From the NCBI RefSeq assembly GCF_004010195.1, contig NC_057718.1:105710297-105746679 (forward strand): 36,383 nucleotides of DNA, read 5' to 3'. Every line of letters begins with the position of its first letter. The first letter of the stretch is position 1. Both the position numbers and the translations under genes were made by a program. The stretch comes from Chiloscyllium plagiosum (Eukaryota). Of this stretch, positions 413 to 36,383 are shown piece by piece. Under the pieces are notes generated by a model that saw nothing but the letters and a program-made list of their open reading frames with translations, was not told where the DNA came from and made no database searches.

Positions 413-599
413 GACTCAAGATTAGGATACAGACAGACTCTATCCTCACACCTTTAATGCACTGAGTGAACTGAGATGTCACCACATTCCATAAAAGAAT
501 AAAAGGAAGGAGGTGGTTTGTCATGGGGTGAACCAGTGAAGTGTTGAGTTTGCGAAGGGCCATGTACCTTAATGTATCTTAATGACTGCCTTTATGTAG

Positions 600-1066
600 T
601 TAAAACTCAAGCAACGCCAGGCTATAGTCCAACAGGTTTATTGGGAAGTGCTCCTTTTTGAAGCACTGCTCCTTTTTCAGGTGGTTGTGAAGCAGGACTT
701 TAAGACACAGAATTTATAGCAAAAGATTAGTGTTATTTAAGTAAAATGATATAATTAACAAACCTAGATTGTTATTAAGTCTTTCATATTTTAGAATGGG
801 TTACAGGTTTTGGTTCATTAATATGTAAATCCCAGAATTGCTTTTAAGTCACATTGTCAAGATGACTAAGGTTTTATAAAAAAAAAGACATCTCAGCTCA
901 GACAATGTGCTAAAAGTGTGAGGTTAGAGTCTGTCTGTATTCCAATCTTGAGTCAGACTGGTTCTATTTCCAAAGTGGAGTTTATAAAATATTACATGGA
1001 TTGACTGCCTGCAAGTTTTTAAACTTTGTCCACCCCAGTCCAACATCGGCTCCTCCATATCATAAC
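600..1066 (-). mobile_element. Penelope-like family 2 non-autonomous element with a decayed hammerhead motif
   Basis: 600-690 is the reverse complement of the HHR-bearing unit at 8734-8822 (shared caggctatagtccaacaggttta). Its core has decayed to CTGAAAA. The element ends in an aactttgtccaccccagtccaac tract. Confidence 0.7.
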
Positions 1067-8189: not shown

Positions 8190-8560
8190 GTGGTAATTTT
8201 CATGTCTGAGATAAGAATGCTGGTTCAGGTCCCACTCCACTCCCTGTACACATACTCTTGACTCATACGTTAGTATGGTGCTGAGCAAATGTTCCAGCAT
8301 TCAGATGACAAGTAATTAGGCTTTTTCTGTCTACTTAGACAGATGAACACCACAGCAGTGTTTGAGGATAGGCAGAGTTCCAAAGAACGCTACCAAAACC
8401 GATCACCTGCCCAGTGAACTCACTGCTTTCCGCAGGTCTTGTATTTCAAACTGGCTAGTAGATTTGACTATGCAATACTGATTGCACTTTCAAAGTAATA
8501 AATTTGTTTCAAAATGTTTTTGTGCACTAGGAATATAAGAAGTGTCATATAAAATGTATG
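8190..8560 (+). mobile_element. Highly decayed DeuSINE (SacSINE1-like)
   Basis: tRNA-like head (ggttcaggtcccactcca), a Deu-domain-like middle and a 3' end cactttcaaagtaa...atataaaatgta, matched to a recalled consensus. Confidence 0.5.
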
Positions 8561-8733
8561 AATTAATAATTTATTTTAGCTTCCTGCTCAGTCAATACAG
8601 TAAGATCATAAGTAAATACCGATTATTGGAATTTAACCTGGTGACAAAATTAAGTCTAGCCAGCGCTTGATTCTTTCAGTTGTTTTTAACATCACACTGA
8701 TCAGTAAATAAGGAGTCAAATAGCATCATGCAA

Positions 8734-8822
8734 TCACCTGATGAAGGAGCCTCGCTCCGAAAGCTAGTGTGCTTCCAATTAAACCTGTTGGACTATAACC
8801 TGGTGTTGTGTGATTTTTAACT
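8734..8822 (+). mobile_element. 89-bp Penelope-like family 2 mini-insertion with a 13-bp TSD
   Basis: Perfect direct repeat TAGCATCATGCAA at 8721-8733 and 8823-8835. The insert is homologous to the reverse complement of 600-690. Confidence 0.9.
8735..8769 (+). ncRNA. Minimal type I hammerhead ribozyme motif (core intact)
   Basis: cac-CTGATGA-A-GGAGC(ctc)GCTCC-GAAA-GC-TA-gtg. Stem I is cac/gtg, stem II has 5 bp, and a palindromic AGCT replaces stem III. Predicted cleavage is after A8766. Confidence 0.8.
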
Positions 8823-9189
8823 TAGCATCATGCAAAGAAGCTTTCAAAGACAAATTCTCTAAATTGATCTAGATAAACTGGTAGTAACATTCTCAGTTTA
8901 AGGAAACCAGGTAATCTGAGGATGTAGTGAACTGTCTTTGTTAACAGACCAGCCTGATCAGTAAATAACAAGCCAGTACGAGAGATTATCTCTATTCAAT
9001 ATTGACAAAAGGCTTTTTGTTTGATTAAATTCTAAGGTATATTATATGATGCATTGTTTTTGGATTTGTAAAAGGTGTTTATTAAAATTATTATAGGCCT
9101 CTGCTTGGAGTCCTGACTTTGACAGGCAGCTGAGATGTTGGGAGAACAGTGTCAGTCCTGATTTGGTTGTAGCCTTCTGTGATTAAAGG

Positions 9190-9504
9190 TTAGATTAGAT
9201 TAGATTAGATTACTTAGGGTGGAAACAGGCCCTTCTGTCCAACAAGTCCACACCGACGCTCTGAAGAGCAACCCACCCAGACTCATTCCTCTACATTTAC
9301 CCATTCACCTAACACTACGGGCAATTTAGCAAGGTCAAATCACCTAACCTGTACATTTTTGGATTGTGGGAGGAAACCGGAGAACCCGGAGGAAACCCAC
9401 GCATGGGGAGGATGTGCAAACTCCACACAGGCAGTTTCCTGAGGCAGGAATTGAACCCGGGTCTCTGGTGCTGTGAGGCAGCAGTGCTAACCACCGTGCC
9501 ACCC
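9190..9504 (-). mobile_element. HE1 (V-SINE) copy, full length
   Basis: tRNA head with A box (ggcacggtggttagc) and B box (gggttcaattcc), V-domain core and (AATCT)n tail. Confidence 0.9.
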
Positions 9505-12577: not shown

Positions 12578-12616
12578 TTGTTGCTTCTTAGCTCCACCCA
12601 GAGTGATTCTACAACT

Positions 12617-12935
12617 AGATTGATTAGATTAGATTACTTACAGTGTGGAAACAGGCCCTTCGGCCCAACAAGTCCACACCGCCCCGCCGAAGCGCAACCC
12701 ACCCATGCCCCTACATTTACCCCTTACCTAACACTACGGGCAATTTAGCATGGCCAATTCACCTGACCTGCACATCTTTGGACTGTGGGAGGAAACAGGA
12801 GCACCCGGAGGAAACCCACGCAGACATGGGGAGAACATGCAAACTCCACGCAGTCAATCGCCTGTGGCGGGAATTGAACCCGGGTCTCTGGTGCTGCGAG
12901 GTAGCAGTGCTAACTGCTGTGCCACCATGCCGCCC
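12617..12935 (-). mobile_element. HE1 (V-SINE) copy, full length
   Basis: Near-identical to the copies at 9190, 15769 and 33157; (AATCT)n tail. Confidence 0.92.
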
Positions 12936-13584
12936 ATTGCTTGTACCAATATCCTTTCTCACTATTGCATTGATTGAATCTTTCACAAATAATATCACCC
13001 ACTTTCTTTTCTGTTTTGCCTGTCTTTCTAAAGATTGAAAATCTTCAGATAATCAGTTCCTAGCCTTGGTCACCTTGCAGCCATTCCCTGTAATCACAAT
13101 CATATTGTACCCATTTACAATTATTTGTGCTACTAATTCATCCAACATATTGTGAATGCTCCTTGCATTCATAAATTCTATCTTTAGACTTGTCTTTGAC
13201 ATTTTTACATATTTTCTATGGCCTTATTTGTTGCTACCTCTGGTTTCTCCATCTTCCACTTTCGCCTTCCACTTTTCTACCTTTCATTTCTATCTTTGCT
13301 TGCCTCGCTCGTCTTCCCATTCAGGTTCCTGTTTCCCTGCCTCTTTAGTTTACAGCTTCCTCCATAGTACTAGCAAATTCTGGGATGCAAACTCTCCAGC
13401 TTGTCAGATCCCATCTTCTTCAGAATTGGTCCCAATGCCTCAACAATCCCTCCTTGCTACACCATTGCTGCAGCCATGCATTCAACTGGTCTATTCTCCT
13501 ATTCCTAATCTTACTAGCACACAGCACTGGGGACAACCCTGAGATTGCTCCTTTGAGATGCTGCTTTTTAATGTTAACACTTAG

Positions 13585-15525: not shown

Positions 15526-15768
15526 CTGAGAGAGAGAGCTTTGCACTTATACAGTCCTTTTCACAACAACTGGATATTTCAAAACAACTTACAGTCAATG
15601 ACAGAGGGTACATTTTAATACTTTGTTTCTATGGAGATAAAGCTGACAGGAGCTGACCTATCAGTCAAAGTCCACTCTCCCCACCTTAGCTCAATCCAAC
15701 TAGATGTACCTGTAGACCGGTTCAGCATAGAAGCTAGACAATTGACCAGCTAGGCCAGGATACTTTGT

Positions 15769-16090
15769 GGGCAGCACGGTGGCACAGTGGTTAGCACTGC
15801 TGCCTCACAGCACCAGAGACCCGGGTTCAATTCCCGTCTCAGGCGACTGACTGTGTGGAGTTTGCACATTCTCCCCGTGTCTGCGTGGGTTTCCTCTGGG
15901 TGCTCCGGTTTCCTCCCACAGTCCAAAAATATGCAGGTTAGGTGAATTGGCCATGCTAAATTGCCCATAGTGTTAGGTGAAGGGGTAAATGTAGGGGAAT
16001 GGGTCTGGGGGTGTTGTGCTTCGGAGGGTCGGTTTGGACTTGTTGGGCCGAAGGACCTGTTTCCACACTGTAAGTAATCTAATCTAATCT
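15769..16090 (+). mobile_element. HE1 (V-SINE) copy, full length
   Basis: A box tggcacagtgg, B box ggttcaattcc, V-core and tail gtaatctaatctaatct. Confidence 0.92.
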
Positions 16091-16386
16091 ACTTCATTAT
16101 ATGCTTGAGAAGAAATCTGAGGCCACATTTTCAGTGAGTCTCAGGCCAATATCTTCGGATACATGTTCTAATCGTGGCATTTGTCATTTAATTTCAGAGT
16201 CTCTACTACTCACACTTTAAGACTTTCTGTTCATCAGCTGCTTGATTCAAACTGTCGCTAAAGAAAATCTGTAAGTATGCATTATGATAATGTCACTCAA
16301 TTAATAATCCAAAGAACCACACTAATACTATGGGAAATGTGGCCTCAAATCCACCAAAGAAGCTGCTGAAACTTAAATAAATCTGG

Positions 16387-16554
16387 TACAAAACAAAGAA
16401 CTGCAGAAGCTGAAGATCTGAAATAAAAACAGATACCACTGGAGAAACTCAGCAATCTGGCAGCATCTGTGGATAAAAGGCAGAGATAAAGTTTTGAGTC
16501 CAGTGACACTTCTGAAGGCACAATGAGTTCCTCCAGCAATTTCTGTTTTGTTTC
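16387..16554 (-). mobile_element. Penelope-like family 3 insertion with a short terminal inversion and 12-bp TSD
   Basis: AAATAAATCTGG at 16375-16386 and 16555-16566. 16525-16554 is an inverted copy of part of the left portion. Confidence 0.8.
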
Positions 16555-16640: not shown

Positions 16641-16959
16641 ATTAGATTAGATTAGATTCCTTACAGTGTGGAAACAGGTCCTTTGGCCCAACAAGTCCAC
16701 ACCGACCCTCCGAAGAGTAACCCACCCAGTCCCAATTCCCTCTGATTAATGCACCTAACACTATGGGCACTTTAGCATGGCCAATTCACCTAACTTGCAC
16801 ATCTTTGGATTGTGGGAGGAAACCGGAGCACCGGGAGGAAACCCACGCAGACACAGGGAGAATGTGCAAACTCCACACACAGTCACCCAAGGCTGGAATT
16901 GAACCTAGGACCTTTGTGCTGAGAAGCAGCAGTGCTAACCACTGAGCCACCATGGCGCC
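16641..16959 (-). mobile_element. HE1 (V-SINE) copy, variant subfamily
   Basis: Same core and tail as the other HE1 copies, but a different pre-tail segment (ctctgattaatgcacc). Confidence 0.9.
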
Positions 16960-21418: not shown

Positions 21419-21632
21419 CTTTGGTGATGAGGATATATCGATCACAGTAGCTGGTTTGACGTACACCTTTACAGTTTCTGTCTTTGGTGTGGATGTATTG
21501 TCAGGTGCTGGAGGTGATGGTGCTTTCCTCTTTGTCTTTTTTTCTGTCTCGGCCTGTTGTACTGAAGCTGTCACTAATGAGGTTTGATACCTTGTAGAAT
21601 GTACAGCCTTCGGCTCGTAGAATGGATTAGAT
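21419..21632 (-). CDS. EHBP1: EHBP1 internal coding exon (last NPF motif and linker before the CH domain)
   Basis: Translates SNPFYEPKAVHSTRYQTSLVTASVQQAETEKKTKRKAPSPPAPD...DISSSPK, against recalled human SNPFYEPK...RVKRKAPAPP...DLSTSPK. Acceptor ttttctgttttaattag|A completes the GA|A (Glu) codon of the previous exon; donor AAG|gtatgg (phase 0); 214 bp. The intron between the two exons is 21633-25311. Confidence 0.95.
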
Positions 21633-23444
21633 CTAATTAAAACAGAAAAATATTCCTTTGACAACTTTCTTCCGTAAAATATATTTTCTTCTCATTCCAG
21701 AAATCATGTACAGTATTTTTGTTGCATCTTATAACCTTTAAACTGTGGAATAAATAAAAAATTCAGGCCACATTCGCTGTGACAAGCTTTTCATGGTTCA
21801 AAGATCATCTTGTTCGGTACTTCTTACTAAACATTTAAATAAATGTTAACTCTTATCTTAAGGTCCACATTCAGATATTAAGTGGCTTCCTGTCACTGTT
21901 CAGAATATGTCATTTGCATAGACTGTTTCCGTTAAAAAATATAAAATCTGCTTTAATGTTAATTTTAAATAATATTTCTAACCATACCAAAAAAGTGAAA
22001 ATAAATGTTACTGGTTTTAATACAACCACTTGCATAGCTTTGAAACCAGTTTTAGTTTAGCTCAGAAAATGACAGTCATTAAACAATGTCAAACATGCGC
22101 TTATTTGTTCATTTTCTTTCTGCACCTTTACAAAAGTAGTTAGAGAGAAAAAATTAGGCAATTAAAAATAAGCATTAATTTATAGTTTTATCATCAGCCA
22201 GATATAAAAACAACAACCAATTTAACCTAACATTAAACTTCTTAGATTGATATAAAGCTCTTTGTGGAAACAAATTTCATCATGGACTAGGTTTCAGTTT
22301 TTTTAAGGCAACTTTCCATTCACTATCAATAGGAAAGCAAGATGATCCTGTCGGTATAAAAAACACAATTGGTCAATTAGCCTGCTCTTGTGTCTTATAC
22401 TTGATCGACCTCTATTTTGCTGTGGTAAACCATTTGACAAGGAAACAAACAACTAGGCACTTTCAGTGCACATCACATGTCAGTCTTGAAGCTTGCCTTC
22501 CAGATCCATCTGTCATTCATGAACTTCCAATAAGACGAAGATACTCGAATGAAAGATGAGGATGACAGGACCAAATTTAACCTGCTGACAGAAGGGGTCT
22601 CTGAGGAATATTCCAGTCATCGCTAGTTTAAAACTTTAGAAGTAAAAGGGTAAAGGTATTAAAAGTATTACTGACTCAAAACGACTGTTGAGTTTTGGAA
22701 ACACAATTTGAATTTAGAATTGTAACACTATTAGTTTCTAATTAATTTCATTGGTTAACACCAAATATAAAGCAATAAAGACAATGGTTAGAAAGTAAGG
22801 CATTAAAATAAATGCCATAAGCAACAAACCATGTAACTTGTGGTCTTGCATGCATCAGTCAGAGGTTGTACTGATGCAAATAGATTGTAGAGTTTCAGAA
22901 AACATCAACACTTGGCAGCATTTTTAGGCCACATACCACTGACTCAAACTAACACTTTAAAAGGTTCAAATGACTGTCCTCCAGGCGGGGGAGTTTGGAG
23001 AGAATCTAACTCAATCTTCCTAAGCACTTAAAAAACATCCAAATTCTTATCTCAGACCTACTACTTACAATCCACAGGTTTGCTTGATCCATTCCAAGCC
23101 TCTGAATTTCTGCTTCCTTTCTCCTAACATCTTCAATACTGATGATATCTTACACTATAAGCTAAGGTCCCACAACTACATTCCTCAGTGGTAAAAAAAA
23201 GACAGTGAAATTACAAAAAATAAACCAGTTATAATTTAAAAACAAATGAATTGGAACGTGGAAGATGAGAAAAGACAAATGTTTTCATTAATGCTTACAT
23301 AATCCTGCAAAGGTTCCTCCTTATAAACTTAAGCTGCCATTATTAAAATGATCTCCACTAATTTCACCCTTGAATGTCGGCAAATTCTTGGGAAACTACA
23401 TTCTCCCACTAAGCAGGCATAGCTCTATTAGCAATAACTATATT

Positions 23445-24620: not shown

Positions 24621-25311
24621 TGCAATTTGCAATTCCTACATTTCAAATGTCAGAATTCAACTGAAGAAATGATCTGTCCAAAAGCTGCAAAACACTGCTC
24701 AGTAAGAAAGGAGAATTTTTAAAGATTTTAAAAGACTAAGATCTAAACTTGGTACACAATTGTTCCAAGCCTGACAACCTAAACCCACCACATTCTCAGT
24801 GCTTTTCTCAGAAGCTGTTCAATACATTTCTGGAAGAATTTAATTAATTATGTTGACATAGTAAATGCAATGCTTCACAAAATGGAAAAGATGTTCCCAA
24901 GGACCGAACCAAATTAGCCATTCACCTGGTCCCACCTGAGCTGAAGAAAAATCTGACCAGTTCGGACACGGGGTGAAATGTAAATAAATAAATAGACATC
25001 TTTTATGGTCTAAGCTGCAGTATTTATTCATGCAACCGTCTCCTTTGATGCATTTTATAGAAGAAACGTACTGGAAACTTAATTGACTAAACTAAAGTGC
25101 ATGAAATTGGATGCTCTGACTATATGATTTTTAATACCTATTAAACTCAGCTTACATAGGTGAACAAACAGGTAATGATCTCTTTCAGCATCATTGAAGG
25201 TTTAAGTGTATCCATCGGATAGCACCCGTAAGTTTTTAAGATATTAGCCTGTATGCTATTAGGTATACAAAACAAATTCAAATCAGATATTGGAATATTT
25301 TAATAACATAC

Positions 25312-25573
25312 TCATCTAATTCCTCCTCCTCTGTTTTTGTTGTATCAGCATAGAGGTACTTGCTCATGTCCACAGGTTTGACATTCTGCCTCTTCATTGG
25401 TTTAGGTGGTTCTATTGCTTCTATCCTATTTTCAATAATCCTGTCAGGTTGAGGATCATATACATCAAAGGGATTGAGAGAATTCTCATACTGTTCATTA
25501 AAAGGATTGTTAGGATCATTATCGTAGAAGGATTCTTCTGGTCTTGCGGCTGACATTGTTCCAATATTTCTCT
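25312..25573 (-). CDS. EHBP1: EHBP1 (EH domain-binding protein 1) internal coding exon, NPF-motif region
   Basis: Translates (E)RNIGTMSAARPEESFYDNDPNNPFNEQYENSLNPFDVYDPQ...KPMKRQNVKPVDMSKYLYADTTKTEEEELD(E). This matches the recalled vertebrate EHBP1 segment RKNIRPVDMSKYLYADSSKTEEEELDE and carries two NPF motifs. Acceptor tttgtttgcag|AG (phase 1), donor GA|gtatgt (phase 2); 262 bp. Confidence 0.95.
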
Positions 25574-25769
25574 CTGCAAACAAAGTTATGAGAGATTTAC
25601 ATTTGAAGTAAAACAGTTAAATGTAAAATAAATGACAGCACAGAAAATTCCTGCAAAACCTAAAATGATTATACAATTGAAGCAAAAACACAATTCTTAC
25701 TTCCATACATTTCTCTTTCTACAAAAAAAGTTGACAAGAAGAAAAGCAGGCTTTCCCAGCAAGTGTTTA

Positions 25770-27414: not shown

Positions 27415-27800
27415 GTTTTTTAATTTATGCATTTATGGGATGTGGGCATCTACATTAATTGTCCCACACCCCCCAACTGCCTCTTCACCCTGCTTGAACC
27501 ATTGCAGTCCACACAGTTTTAATTCCTTTGAGATTTCATAGCAGTTTGATACAACTGAGTAGTTCATTAGTCATCTCAAAGGGCATTTGCAGGTGAACCA
27601 CTTGGCTGTGGATCTGGAGTCACAGATAAGCCAGACAGGTACAAAAACAGAAATTGCTGGGAAAACTCAGCAGGTCAGGCAGCACTTTAGAGAGAAAGCA
27701 AAGTTAACATTTTGGGTCCAGTGACCCTTCTTCAGAACAGGTATGAGTGATAGCCTTCCTTCACTGGGCCAGTGACATTACAGCTACATCACCACCTCTC
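27415..27800 (-). mobile_element. Family B-related SINE or LINE 3' piece hosting a PLE mini-insertion
   Basis: atgggatgtgggcatc...gctgtggatctggagtcaca..gccaga is the reverse complement of the family B 3' half. Confidence 0.6.
27642..27736 (-). mobile_element. 95-bp Penelope-like family 3 mini-insertion with a hammerhead motif and 7-bp TSD
   Basis: ACAGGTA at 27635-27641 and 27737-27743. The minus strand reads gtt-CTGAAGA-A-GGGTC(actg)GACCC-AAAA-TG-TT-aac, with a G12A change. Confidence 0.85.
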
Positions 27801-28294: not shown

Positions 28295-28500
28295 AGCATC
28301 CACCAGAGACACTCAGCAGGTCTGGCAGCACTTGAGGTGAGATAATGGATCAAGTCCAATAATATTCTGTTGGTCTTCAAAACTGAAGAAGTCACACTGG
28401 ACTCTAAACATTATCTCAATTTATCTCTCCACAGATGCTGAATTTCTCCAGCATTTTCTGTGTTTTGTTCAGAAGTCCAGCATCTGCAGTATTTTGCTTT
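28295..28500. mobile_element. Decayed fold-back Penelope-like family 3 element
   Basis: Left arm ctcagcaggtctggcagca; right arm ctgaagaagtcacactggactc...ccacagatgctg...ccagcatctgcag, in opposite orientation. Confidence 0.6.
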
Positions 28501-31821: not shown

Positions 31822-32040
31822 GAGAAAATGAGGTCTGCAGATGCTGCTGATCAGAGTCGAGAGTGTGGTGCTGGAAAAGCACAGCAGGTCAGGCAGCATC
31901 CGAGGAGCAGGAGAACCGATGTTTCGGGCATTACCCTTCACCAGGCTTTCCTGATGAAGGGCTAATGCCCGAAACATCGATTTTTCTGCTCCTCGAATGT
32001 TGCCTGACCGGCTCTGCTTTTCCAGCACCACACTCTCGAC
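31822..32040. mobile_element. Fold-back Penelope-like family 1 element: ~90-bp inverted arms, each carrying a hammerhead motif
   Basis: Arms 31856-31945 and 31950-32040 with a 4-nt loop CTTT. Flanked by catacatacatg and catacatatatacatg (TSD-like). Confidence 0.9.
31949..31982 (+). ncRNA. Minimal hammerhead ribozyme motif
   Basis: tc-CTGATGA-A-GGGC(taat)GCCC-GAAA-CA-TC-ga. The core is intact; the presumed stem III palindrome ACGT has decayed to ACAT. Confidence 0.7.
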
Positions 32041-33040: not shown

Positions 33041-33156
33041 CGCTTCCTTTGAGATCGCAGTCCACAAATGTCCCAGTTCCAATTCCTGGGCCGGGCCCAG
33101 TTACCACATTGCAGTGGGGTGGGGAGCTTTGTGTCAGCCTGAAGTTTAAAAAAAGT

Positions 33157-33464
33157 GGACGGCACGGTGGCACAGTGGTTAGCACTGCTGCCTCACAGCG
33201 CCAGAGACCCGGGTTCAATTCCCGACTCAGGCGACTGACTGTGTGGAGTTTCACATTCTCCCTGTGTCTGCGTGGATTTCCTCCGGGTGCTCCGGTTTCC
33301 TCCCACAGTCCAAAGGTTAGGTGAATTGGCCATGCTAAATTGCCCATAGTGTTAGGTAAAAGGGGTAAATGTAGGGGAATGGGTGGGTTGCGCTTTGGCG
33401 GGTCGGTGTGGGCTTGTTGGGCCAAAGGGCCTGTTTCCACACTGTAAGTAATCTAATCTAATCT
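33157..33464 (+). mobile_element. HE1 (V-SINE) copy
   Basis: A and B boxes, V-core with a small deletion, and (AATCT)3 tail. Confidence 0.92.
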
Positions 33465-35104: not shown

Positions 35105-35272
35105 ATGGAACATAGAACACTACAGCACAGAACAGTCCCTTCGGCCCTCGGTGTTGCACTGACCTGTGAACTATTCTCAGCTCGTCCGCTATACTATCCC
35201 AAAATCATCCATGTTATCTATGGATGGTTTAAATCTCCCTAATGTGGCTGAGTTGACTACATTAGCAGGTAG
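35105..35272 (-). mobile_element. CR1/HER1 3' end, cut by the Penelope-like insertion
   Basis: gaacatagaaca tail; homologous to 34572-34745. Confidence 0.7.
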
Positions 35273-36383
35273 AAAGTGAGGACTGCAGATGCTGGAGATC
35301 AGAGCTGAAAATGTGTTGCTGGAAAAGCACAGCAGGTCAGGCAGCATCCAAGGTACAGGAGAATCGACATTTCAGTCATGAGCCCTTCTTCAGGAATGAG
35401 GAAAGTGTGTCCAGCAGGCTAAGATAAGAGGTAGGGAGGAGGGACTTGGGGGAGAGGCATTGGAAATGTGATAGGTGGAAGGAGGTCAAGGTGACGGTGA
35501 TAGGCCGGAGTGGGGGTGGGGGCGGAGAGGTCAGGAAGATTGCAGGTTAGGAAGGCGGTGCTGAGTTCGAGGGATTTGACTGAGACAAGGTGGGGGGAGG
35601 GGAAATGAGGAAACTGGAGAAACTGGACCAGTTGCAATACCGTACATCTGCTCCCAGGAGGACCAGTTCCAATACCGTACAACCCAGATGGTCTCTTTCT
35701 TCAAAGACCGCAATTTCCCCCCAGACGTGATCGACGATGGCCTCCACCGCATCTCCTCCACTTCCCGCTCCTCCGCCCTTGAGCCCCGCTCCTCCAATCG
35801 CCACCAGGACAGAACCCCACTGGTCCTCACCTACCACTCCACCAACCTCCATATACATCGTATCATCCGTCGTCATTTCCGCCACCTCCAAACGGACCCC
35901 ACCACCAAGGATATATTTCCCTCCCCTCCCCTATCAGCGTTCCGAAAAGACCACTCCCTCCGTAACTCCTCGTCAGGTCCACACCCCCCACCAACCCAAC
36001 CTCCACTCCTGGCAACCGCAAGAAATGCAAAACTTGCGCCCACACCTCCCCCCTTACTTCCCTCCAAGGCCCCAAGGGATCCTTCCATATCCGCCACAAA
36101 TTCACCTGCACCTCCACACACATCATTTACTGCATCCGCTGCACCCGATGTGGCCTCCTCTATATTGGGGAGACAGATGTGGCCTTGGGGAGACAGGCCG
36201 CCTACTTGTGGAAGTTTCAGAGAACGCCTCTGGGACACCCGGACCAACCAACCCAACCAACCCAACGCTCAACATTTCAATTCCCCCTCCCACTCCACCA
36301 AGGATATGCAGGTCTTTGGACCCCTCCATCGTCAGACCACAGCGAAACAACGGTTGGAGGAAGAACGCCTCATCATCCGCCTA
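35273..36383 (+). mobile_element. Penelope-like retroelement family 1: inverted 3' end (pseudo-LTR) plus RT thumb and GIY-YIG endonuclease remnant; runs off the window
   Basis: 35273-35625 is the inverted terminal part, with a minus-strand HHR motif at 35362-35397 (CTGAAGA-A-GGGC(tcat)GACT-GAAA-TG-TC). From about 35645 the plus strand reads ICSQEDQF...PLVLTYH...KKCKTC...FTCTSTHIIYCIRCTRCGLLYIGET, with frameshifts. Confidence 0.9.

Follow-up and report, generated by a model that had tools for sequence, protein, structure and literature searches.

Penelope-like elements (PLEs) leave insertions with a characteristic architecture, and the examples in the accessible parts of PMC8557442, PMC3846280 and PMC8969392 include a 30–40 bp tail, inverted 5′ copies, partial tandems and target-site duplications (TSDs) of 8–10 bp. 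According to the available text of PMC8557442, these insertions are also heavily 5′-truncated. In PAc, an element of the anole, the tail corresponds to the stretch between two internal reverse-transcription start sites, and the targets are AT-rich (PMC11167929). Transcription of PLEs starts in the upstream pseudo-LTR (pLTR), and an intron that lies 46 bp after the start in D. virilis has its end at helix I (PMC2377424 and PMC4209133, as far as their accessible text goes).

Minimal hammerhead ribozymes (min-HHRs) of PLEs are reported in the available portion of PMC4209133 mostly as single motifs ascribed to truncated PLEs, with thousands per genome in coelacanth and Xenopus; in lamprey and coelacanth, helix I is 3–4 bp long (supplement of the same paper, accessible part). 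A minimal hammerhead monomer assayed in that study did not cleave and dimers cleaved weakly, and one of nine Xenopus retrozyme dimers cleaved in the accessible account of bioRxiv 10.64898/2026.07.22.740005. The role of the PLE hammerhead is called unclear in the text available from PMC8557442; the PAc hammerhead needs protein to cleave, and insertion in vitro does not depend on this ribozyme (PMC11167929).

Here we analyze a short insert in the bamboo shark Chiloscyllium plagiosum that lies in a 36,383-nucleotide stretch of contig NC_057718.1, which we refer to in its entirety as the window. An initial annotation, made from the sequence alone, had described the insert as a recent, very small ribozyme-bearing non-autonomous retroelement. 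We conclude that it is most likely a truncated end of a PLE, equipped with a minimal hammerhead; sequences of this kind have been known since 2014.

Results

A short insert with a minimal hammerhead core

The insert is bracketed by a perfect 13-mer, as the initial annotation had described; this 13-mer occurs exactly twice in the window, with no additional matching bases on either side (Table 1). Exact 13-mer pairs spaced 30–500 bp apart arise 0.83 times per shuffled window, and we accept this pair as a TSD because it coincides with the boundaries of a repeat family, and not by its own rarity. Since the last three bases of the left copy (8731–8733) equal the upstream sequence of that family, the 5′ junction shows microhomology and can be placed only to within 3 nt. 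An exact 15-bp direct repeat (8697–8711 and 8954–8968, 257 bp apart) also flanks the insert region, at a level expected by chance in the window.

Table 1. Coordinates of the insert, its hammerhead landmarks, its relatives and the neighboring exons in the window.
Feature	Position	Strand	Details
Older decayed copy of the insert's family	598..1014	-	76% identity over 88–92 bp; core bases mutated
Inverted short 3′ end with 37-nt tail (1027–1063)	1015..1063	+	Head-to-head with the older copy
Left TSD	8721..8733	+	Final 3 nt shared with upstream sequence of the family
Insert: 3′ end (pLTR end, tail-less form) of abundant PLE-type repeat (likely PLE)	8734..8822	+	89 bp
Hammerhead helix I, 5′ strand	8735..8737	+	3 bp with 8767–8769, predicted pairing
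Catalytic core C3–A9 and extra unpaired A	8738..8745	+	Core CUGAUGA 8738–8744, extra A 8745
Stem-loop II	8746..8758	+	5 bp, 8746–8750/8754–8758; 3-nt loop; G10.1–C11.1
G12-A13-A14, palindrome and A17	8759..8766	+	GAA 8759–8761; AGCU 8762–8765; A17 = 8766
ATTAAA poly(A)-signal-like hexamer	8778..8783	+	Followed by GU-rich 8802–8818
Right TSD	8823..8835	+	First T may be the element's
EHBP1 coding exon	21419..21640	-	aa 349–422 of P0005; mapped exon nearest to the insert, upstream in gene orientation
EHBP1 coding exon	25311..25574	-	aa 264–351 of P0005

The catalytic core begins 4 nt after the start of the insert, and every landmark previously attributed to it (CUGAUGA, stem II and GAAA, with AGCU replacing stem III) is present, as is the poly(A)-like signal noted earlier as AATTAAA. 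The motif has the features that characterize PLE minimal type I hammerheads: C3–A9, G12–A14, A15.1–U16.1 and H17 are in place, one unpaired base separates positions 9 and 10.1, a G10.1–C11.1 pair is present, a palindrome occupies 15.2–16.2 instead of helix III, and a short closing helix I of 3 bp is predicted from the insert alone. Host bases of the TSD (8730–8732) could add three predicted pairs to this helix with 8770–8772. The palindrome is predicted to form an intermolecular helix III in a dimer, and hammerhead numbering predicts a cut after 8766. Anatomy and TSD together support the earlier proposal of a PLE-type minimal hammerhead on a retrotransposed insert.

To gauge chance occurrence, we note that a strict core with stem II is found at a rate of 0.017 per shuffled window and that, with the palindrome added, no match arose in 300 shuffles. 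The real window contains two strict matches to the core and stem II, and only the one at 8738 has the palindrome. No Rfam family, hammerheads included, was matched in the window at the gathering threshold, and at E ≤ 10 only an unrelated chance match to ArcZ (E 2.6) was found nearby; a motif that lacks helix III would be expected to escape detection in this way. Neither the hammerhead core nor the hexamer occurs on the minus strand of the insert. We also observed that the hexamer (ATTAAA or AATAAA, depending on the copy) and the GU-rich stretch give 8778–8818 a full poly(A)-site-like layout upstream of the 3′ priming points.

Position relative to EHBP1

Both minus-strand exons in Table 1 match EHBP1 of Chiloscyllium and Hemiscyllium (100% and 91–97% identity), and the nearer one lies ~12.6 kb from the insert. 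As no later EHBP1 exon maps in the window, the insert most likely falls within a long EHBP1 intron, a placement based on exon matches. The gene is on the minus strand and the ribozyme and hexamer are on the plus strand, so both motifs are antisense to it.

An intact core inside a gene could be taken to mean that the host has adopted the insert, as an intronic ribozyme or as a poly(A) signal acting on EHBP1 RNA. This we consider scarcely credible, given that both motifs are antisense, that the strand of the insert that is sense to the gene has no core or hexamer, and that a close relative likely lacks the insert (see below). A domesticated intronic hammerhead, which would be sense to the pre-mRNA and conserved, was rejected on the same grounds of orientation and likely absence.

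Repeats are abundant across the remainder of the window. Five full copies (82–90% alike) of a ~320-bp repeat were found at 9191–9503, 12616–12936, 15767–16091, 16641–16959 and 33155–33464; this repeat combines a tRNA-like head with a short tandem tail and resembles a shark SINE, possibly HE1.

An abundant repeat family

We evaluated the family to which the insert belongs using public contigs aligned to 8450–9100 at 85% likeness, drawn from three DNA-type runs, two labeled with the same species and one from a related species. The insert attracted 28,842, 30,263 and 44,191 contig records in the three runs, and summed depth reached 10^6–10^7 on the insert against 5–30 on the flanks, a depth that is not a copy number. 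The insert is one copy of a highly abundant shark repeat, of which it comprises the 3′ end. Loose contig ends behind 8820–8822 are heterogeneous and AT-rich (262, 302 and 303 records in run X5, with agreement of 0.35–0.41, among the 18 of 394 loose-end rows listed), indicating that many independent insertions end there. Behind 8823, the majority letters in the rows listed (1006, 1007 and 1580 records) agree with the tail at 1027–1056 of the window in 28 of 30 letters (visual comparison, run X12). Tailed and tail-less 3′ ends therefore both occur across the family, the tail being an optional 37 nt. Before 8731, the majority letters (118 and 115 records in the rows listed) resemble the upstream sequence of the older copy in the window.

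Several variants occur in the family. A change of G12 to A, at a CpG, accounts for 7–10% of depth, which leaves a potentially competent core in most copies. A change of T to A at 8779, which converts ATTAAA to AATAAA, accounts for 38–43% of depth, and a 2-nt deletion at 8767 accounts for ~8%, a value that is probably undercounted through clipping. The 15 of 16 joints listed comprise 12 head-to-head inversions, two partial tandems (go-back) and one skip. One side lies at 8733–8737 in 10 of the 12 listed inversion joints, and none of the 15 listed joints is an inversion at 8738–8768, patterns to which alignment bias may contribute.

The insert is a single unit at its locus, and its nearest relative in the window is 8 kb away, on the opposite strand and decayed. 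This older copy has the same 3′ end and reaches ~330 bp further upstream of the core. Six-frame translation of the copy gave no coding frame, and tblastn of 29 PLE-type proteins gave no match in its 425 bp. A possible decayed 10-bp TSD (588–597 and 1064–1073, 7 of 10 positions matching) surrounds the older copy's insertion, and an internal fragment of the family (412–480, 84% identical to 887–955 on the opposite strand) adjoins a stub of another hammerhead family described below. Exact 30-mer scans of metagenome, prokaryote-genome and viral collections returned zero matches in each, and metagenome and viral contigs yielded no related locus when queried with a shark PLE protein.

The family displays the insertion traits of PLEs, with a TSD, an optional 37-nt tail at a common 3′ end, inverted 5′ copies and partial tandems. 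On the strength of the tail, inversions and partial tandems, it is likely a PLE by analogy of architecture. The initial annotation had treated the 89 bp as a non-autonomous element of its own; this is not supported, as family members run on upstream and carry a tail downstream.

A likely empty site and the age of the insertion

In the related species (organism B), one contig record (record 2) covers 8604–8728 and ends inside the left TSD, while another (record 8) aligns over 8827–9100, with 26 letters toward the insert left unaligned. If the site is empty, record 8 would start at 8699 and share exactly 30 letters with record 2, the overlap expected between adjacent 31-mer contigs. A filled site (8801–8826) would likewise account for 26 letters; these positions are the best-covered part of the family, however, and should have aligned. 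We infer from these contig ends, with no joint displayed, that organism B likely lacks the insert, and hold this with considerable assurance; the initial annotation had proposed looking for just such an empty site in related sharks. In run X5, another sample of the same species label as the shark, one record spans the right junction and includes 22 insert letters; it is consistent with a filled site and falls short of the 31-letter bridging rule. Run X6 had a gap in coverage at the locus.

The flanks differ from organism B by 12 substitutions in 557 bases (2.15%). The insertion had been called recent, and the likely empty site in a species at this distance lends that description partial support. 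Perfection of the TSD does not add to it: a perfect 13-bp TSD is in itself compatible with up to 21% divergence, and we rejected it as proof of youth. If the empty site is confirmed, the insert could be used as a presence/absence marker among bamboo sharks.

Additional hammerhead families in the window

A second minimal-hammerhead family occurs in the window, and here the region 35634–36383 matches RT/GIY-YIG-type proteins of sharks and other organisms (E 4e-55 to P0050; E 5e-16 to the 894-aa P0059). An inverted 3′ end of the family (35270–35630) carries the ribozyme and is attached to this remnant of an RT/GIY-YIG-type ORF, in which Pfam gave only a sub-threshold GIY-YIG match (E 0.15). Homologues thus suggest that the second family is a PLE. 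Across 35270–36383, which reaches the end of the window, a 3′ end on the minus strand, its hammerhead decayed (core at 35393), stands head-to-head with a frameshifted remnant of RT thumb, linker and GIY-YIG. We presume this remnant to be Neptune-like from its CxxC linker.

Shorter members were also observed. A head-to-head pair of second-family ends lies at 31823–32040 in a (TACA)n-like target, with cores at 31944 (minus) and 31951 (plus), and both arms start 1–3 nt before their hammerhead cores. A ~90-bp stub of the same family, starting from the hammerhead core, is located at 2760–2851 inside a LINE-like fragment, with a 5-bp duplication (GAAGC). A third family consists of decayed hammerhead-type ends at 306–410, 16387–16513, 27643–27735 and 28385–28500; three of these copies share no sequence upstream of the core, which again suggests starts at the core.

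The 5′ boundary at helix I

Using long copies as references, we measured where the copies in the window start. For the insert, the start lies 4–7 nt upstream of the core; for the second family's three short copies, the distances are 1, 3 and 3 nt. Every one of the four short copies in the two families thus starts 1–7 nt before the core; these represent three independent events among five insertions, and two of the six copies extend 237–342 nt upstream. The probability of this clustering is 2.5e-5 to 2e-4 under uniform truncation and about 0.004–0.02 under the most favorable exponential, in a small sample and with a width chosen after seeing the data. The reference for the contig alignments contained no upstream family sequence, and these counts of 5′ ends cover window copies only.

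One explanation is that truncation was random and that a start beside the ribozyme is a coincidence or an effect of how the copies were found. The heavy 5′ truncation of PLEs (PMC8557442, accessible text), the long reach of two of the six copies and the 3-nt junction microhomology, which fits ordinary end joining, are all compatible with this, and BLAST may miss very short or decayed copies. The concentration of all four short starts within a few nucleotides of the core, at the low probabilities given above even under the exponential, and the lack of listed inversion joints at 8738–8768 (with possible alignment bias) speak against it, and we regard random truncation as unlikely.

The ribozyme itself might instead have set the boundaries, if reverse transcriptase ran off hammerhead-cut RNA. 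One side lies at 8769 in 29 of 48 inversion-joint contigs (from three runs that are not independent), and this is the first base past the predicted cut in the variant without the 2-nt insertion. Position 8769 is also the main clipping point of that variant (419, 387 and 566 loose ends), however, so the peak may be an artefact, and we rejected it as proof of cleavage. Moreover, the insert and the three short second-family copies retain the entire core and have their starts upstream of it, an outcome that cleavage cannot yield; and in PAc, hammerhead mutants left insertion unchanged and the cut was neither the beginning nor the end of any RNA read (PMC11167929). Cleavage fossils are therefore a very improbable account. 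More generally, stalling at the ribozyme should produce ends on its 3′ side and cleavage should produce ends at 8767, and a boundary 5′ of helix I follows from neither. The most economical interpretation would be a template that ends at this point, given that PLE transcription starts in the upstream pLTR and that the D. virilis intron mentioned above ends at helix I.

The recurrence of short copies with near-identical boundaries could also mean that the ~90-bp unit is an independent mini-element, either a monomeric retrozyme or a ribozyme SINE, with its own masters and mobilized in trans by a PLE. The position of one side of most listed inversion joints at 8733–8737 would suit such a unit, as would the subfamily variants at 8767 (the 2-nt indel) and 8779 (T/A), and pLTR-derived retrozymes occur in vertebrates, including one chondrichthyan, in the accessible account of bioRxiv 10.64898/2026.07.22.740005. 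A hammerhead SINE of the Schistosoma Sm-alpha type would be expected to have an internal Pol III promoter of its own and master copies distinct from those of an autonomous element. Against this, family members extend past the 89 bp on both sides, the insert is not a tandem array, no promoter was identified inside the 89 bp, and an equal boundary in a second family that has a long copy linked to a PLE ORF points to a common mechanism and not to separate masters. We consider an independent element improbable, and slightly more so than random truncation.

Prospects for cleavage

The initial annotation had singled out the insert as the best candidate in the window for catalytic activity. It does carry the most intact motif, the only one with the palindrome, but its prospects in place are poor, as it is a single antisense copy for which a dimer fold is disfavored. 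The predicted fold of the whole insert pairs the 5′ strand of the ribozyme with the GU-rich 3′ part. An explicit two-strand hammerhead dimer is predicted at -17.7 kcal/mol with a 3-bp helix I, or -20.7 kcal/mol with three extra host-TSD pairs, compared with -22.6 kcal/mol for two separately folded monomers and -27.3 kcal/mol for the best dimer fold; the hammerhead dimer is thus not favored. Fold z-scores of the insert are unremarkable (-1.0 to -1.6). In the ~6% of one raw RNA run that was covered, 0 reads fell on the region, a share too small to bear on expression in either direction. Considering the antisense orientation, the lack of a dimer partner nearby and the published monomer results, hammerhead cleavage at the EHBP1 locus would be unlikely.

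Discussion

The explanation that best accounts for our results as a whole, and that we think probable, is that the insert is the 5′-truncated 3′ end of an abundant, likely PLE family, placed in an EHBP1 intron likely by target-primed reverse transcription, with a passenger hammerhead that is probably silent. In such an event, the RT/GIY-YIG protein of a PLE would nick an AT-rich target with a 12–13 bp stagger, and cDNA would begin at the tail-less internal start site (8820–8823), by analogy with what has been shown in vitro for anole PAc. Synthesis would then stop a few bases before helix I, with about an even chance that it does so because the template RNA ends there, either at a start site or at a splice junction of the upstream pLTR. 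The boundary 1–7 nt before the core may accordingly mark the point where the template RNA has its 5′ end, and a template that ends before helix I would cause short copies to start repeatedly at the front edge of the ribozyme. Within the parent element, cleavage by the motif would fall after A17 and would take place in a dimer or with the help of protein; the lone antisense copy presumably does not cleave.

A more specific version of the truncated-PLE explanation is that the ~90-bp stub is a discrete and mass-produced PLE product, generated by internal priming in the upstream pseudo-LTR and by run-off at the RNA 5′ end before helix I. This interpretation must be made cautiously, and we put forward run-off as a plausible proposal that falls short of probable. 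If it were true, shark genomes would contain a huge in vivo record of where PLE transcripts start and where priming occurs, and the ribozyme would be the first structured element of the PLE mRNA. At its boldest, the run-off proposal would have stub RNAs mobilized anew, as a ribozyme SINE of ~90 nt. If the 5′ boundary were fixed at helix I across families, the role of the PLE hammerhead would become testable, by comparing transcript 5′ ends with genomic stub ends. The single locus is of little weight in itself, being one antisense intronic stub among very many. Our literature search, which took in few subscription journals and part of the supplements, and not Repbase or Dfam, found no published description of this shark family or of the helix-I 5′ boundary.

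The closest described counterparts of the motif are the min-HHRs of metazoan PLEs (Cervera & De la Pena 2014, PMC4209133), with which, going by the accessible text, the insert shares the intact core, the extra base after A9, the G10.1–C11.1 pair, the palindromic 15.2–16.2, a very short helix I and the lack of helix III. The bamboo shark is not named as a host in the available portion of that paper, which likewise does not describe a fixed 5′ boundary at helix I, and abundance appears far higher here. As an insertion, the locus resembles endonuclease-bearing PLEs such as Penelope/Poseidon and Neptune (PMC3846280 and PMC8557442, in the parts available) and PAc (PMC11167929): these share 5′ truncation, a short TSD, AT-rich targets, an optional 30–40 bp tail between two 3′ end points, inverted head-to-head copies, partial tandems and no poly(A) tail. 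The TSD is 12–13 bp here, whereas the rotifer PLE examples in the accessible text of PMC3846280 and PMC8557442 have 8–10 bp. The ORF of PAc starts inside its ribozyme (PMC11167929), whereas the ATG at 8741 of the insert reaches a stop after 8 codons. Finally, the non-LTR retrozymes of animals (bioRxiv 10.64898/2026.07.22.740005, available text) are likewise non-coding and pLTR-related, carry a type I hammerhead, and have dispersed monomer derivatives and consensus sequences from 51 bp. Retrozymes are expected to pass through a circular RNA intermediate. They consist of at least two tandem units, each with a ribozyme, whereas the locus described here holds a single TSD-flanked unit whose family runs into longer sequence.
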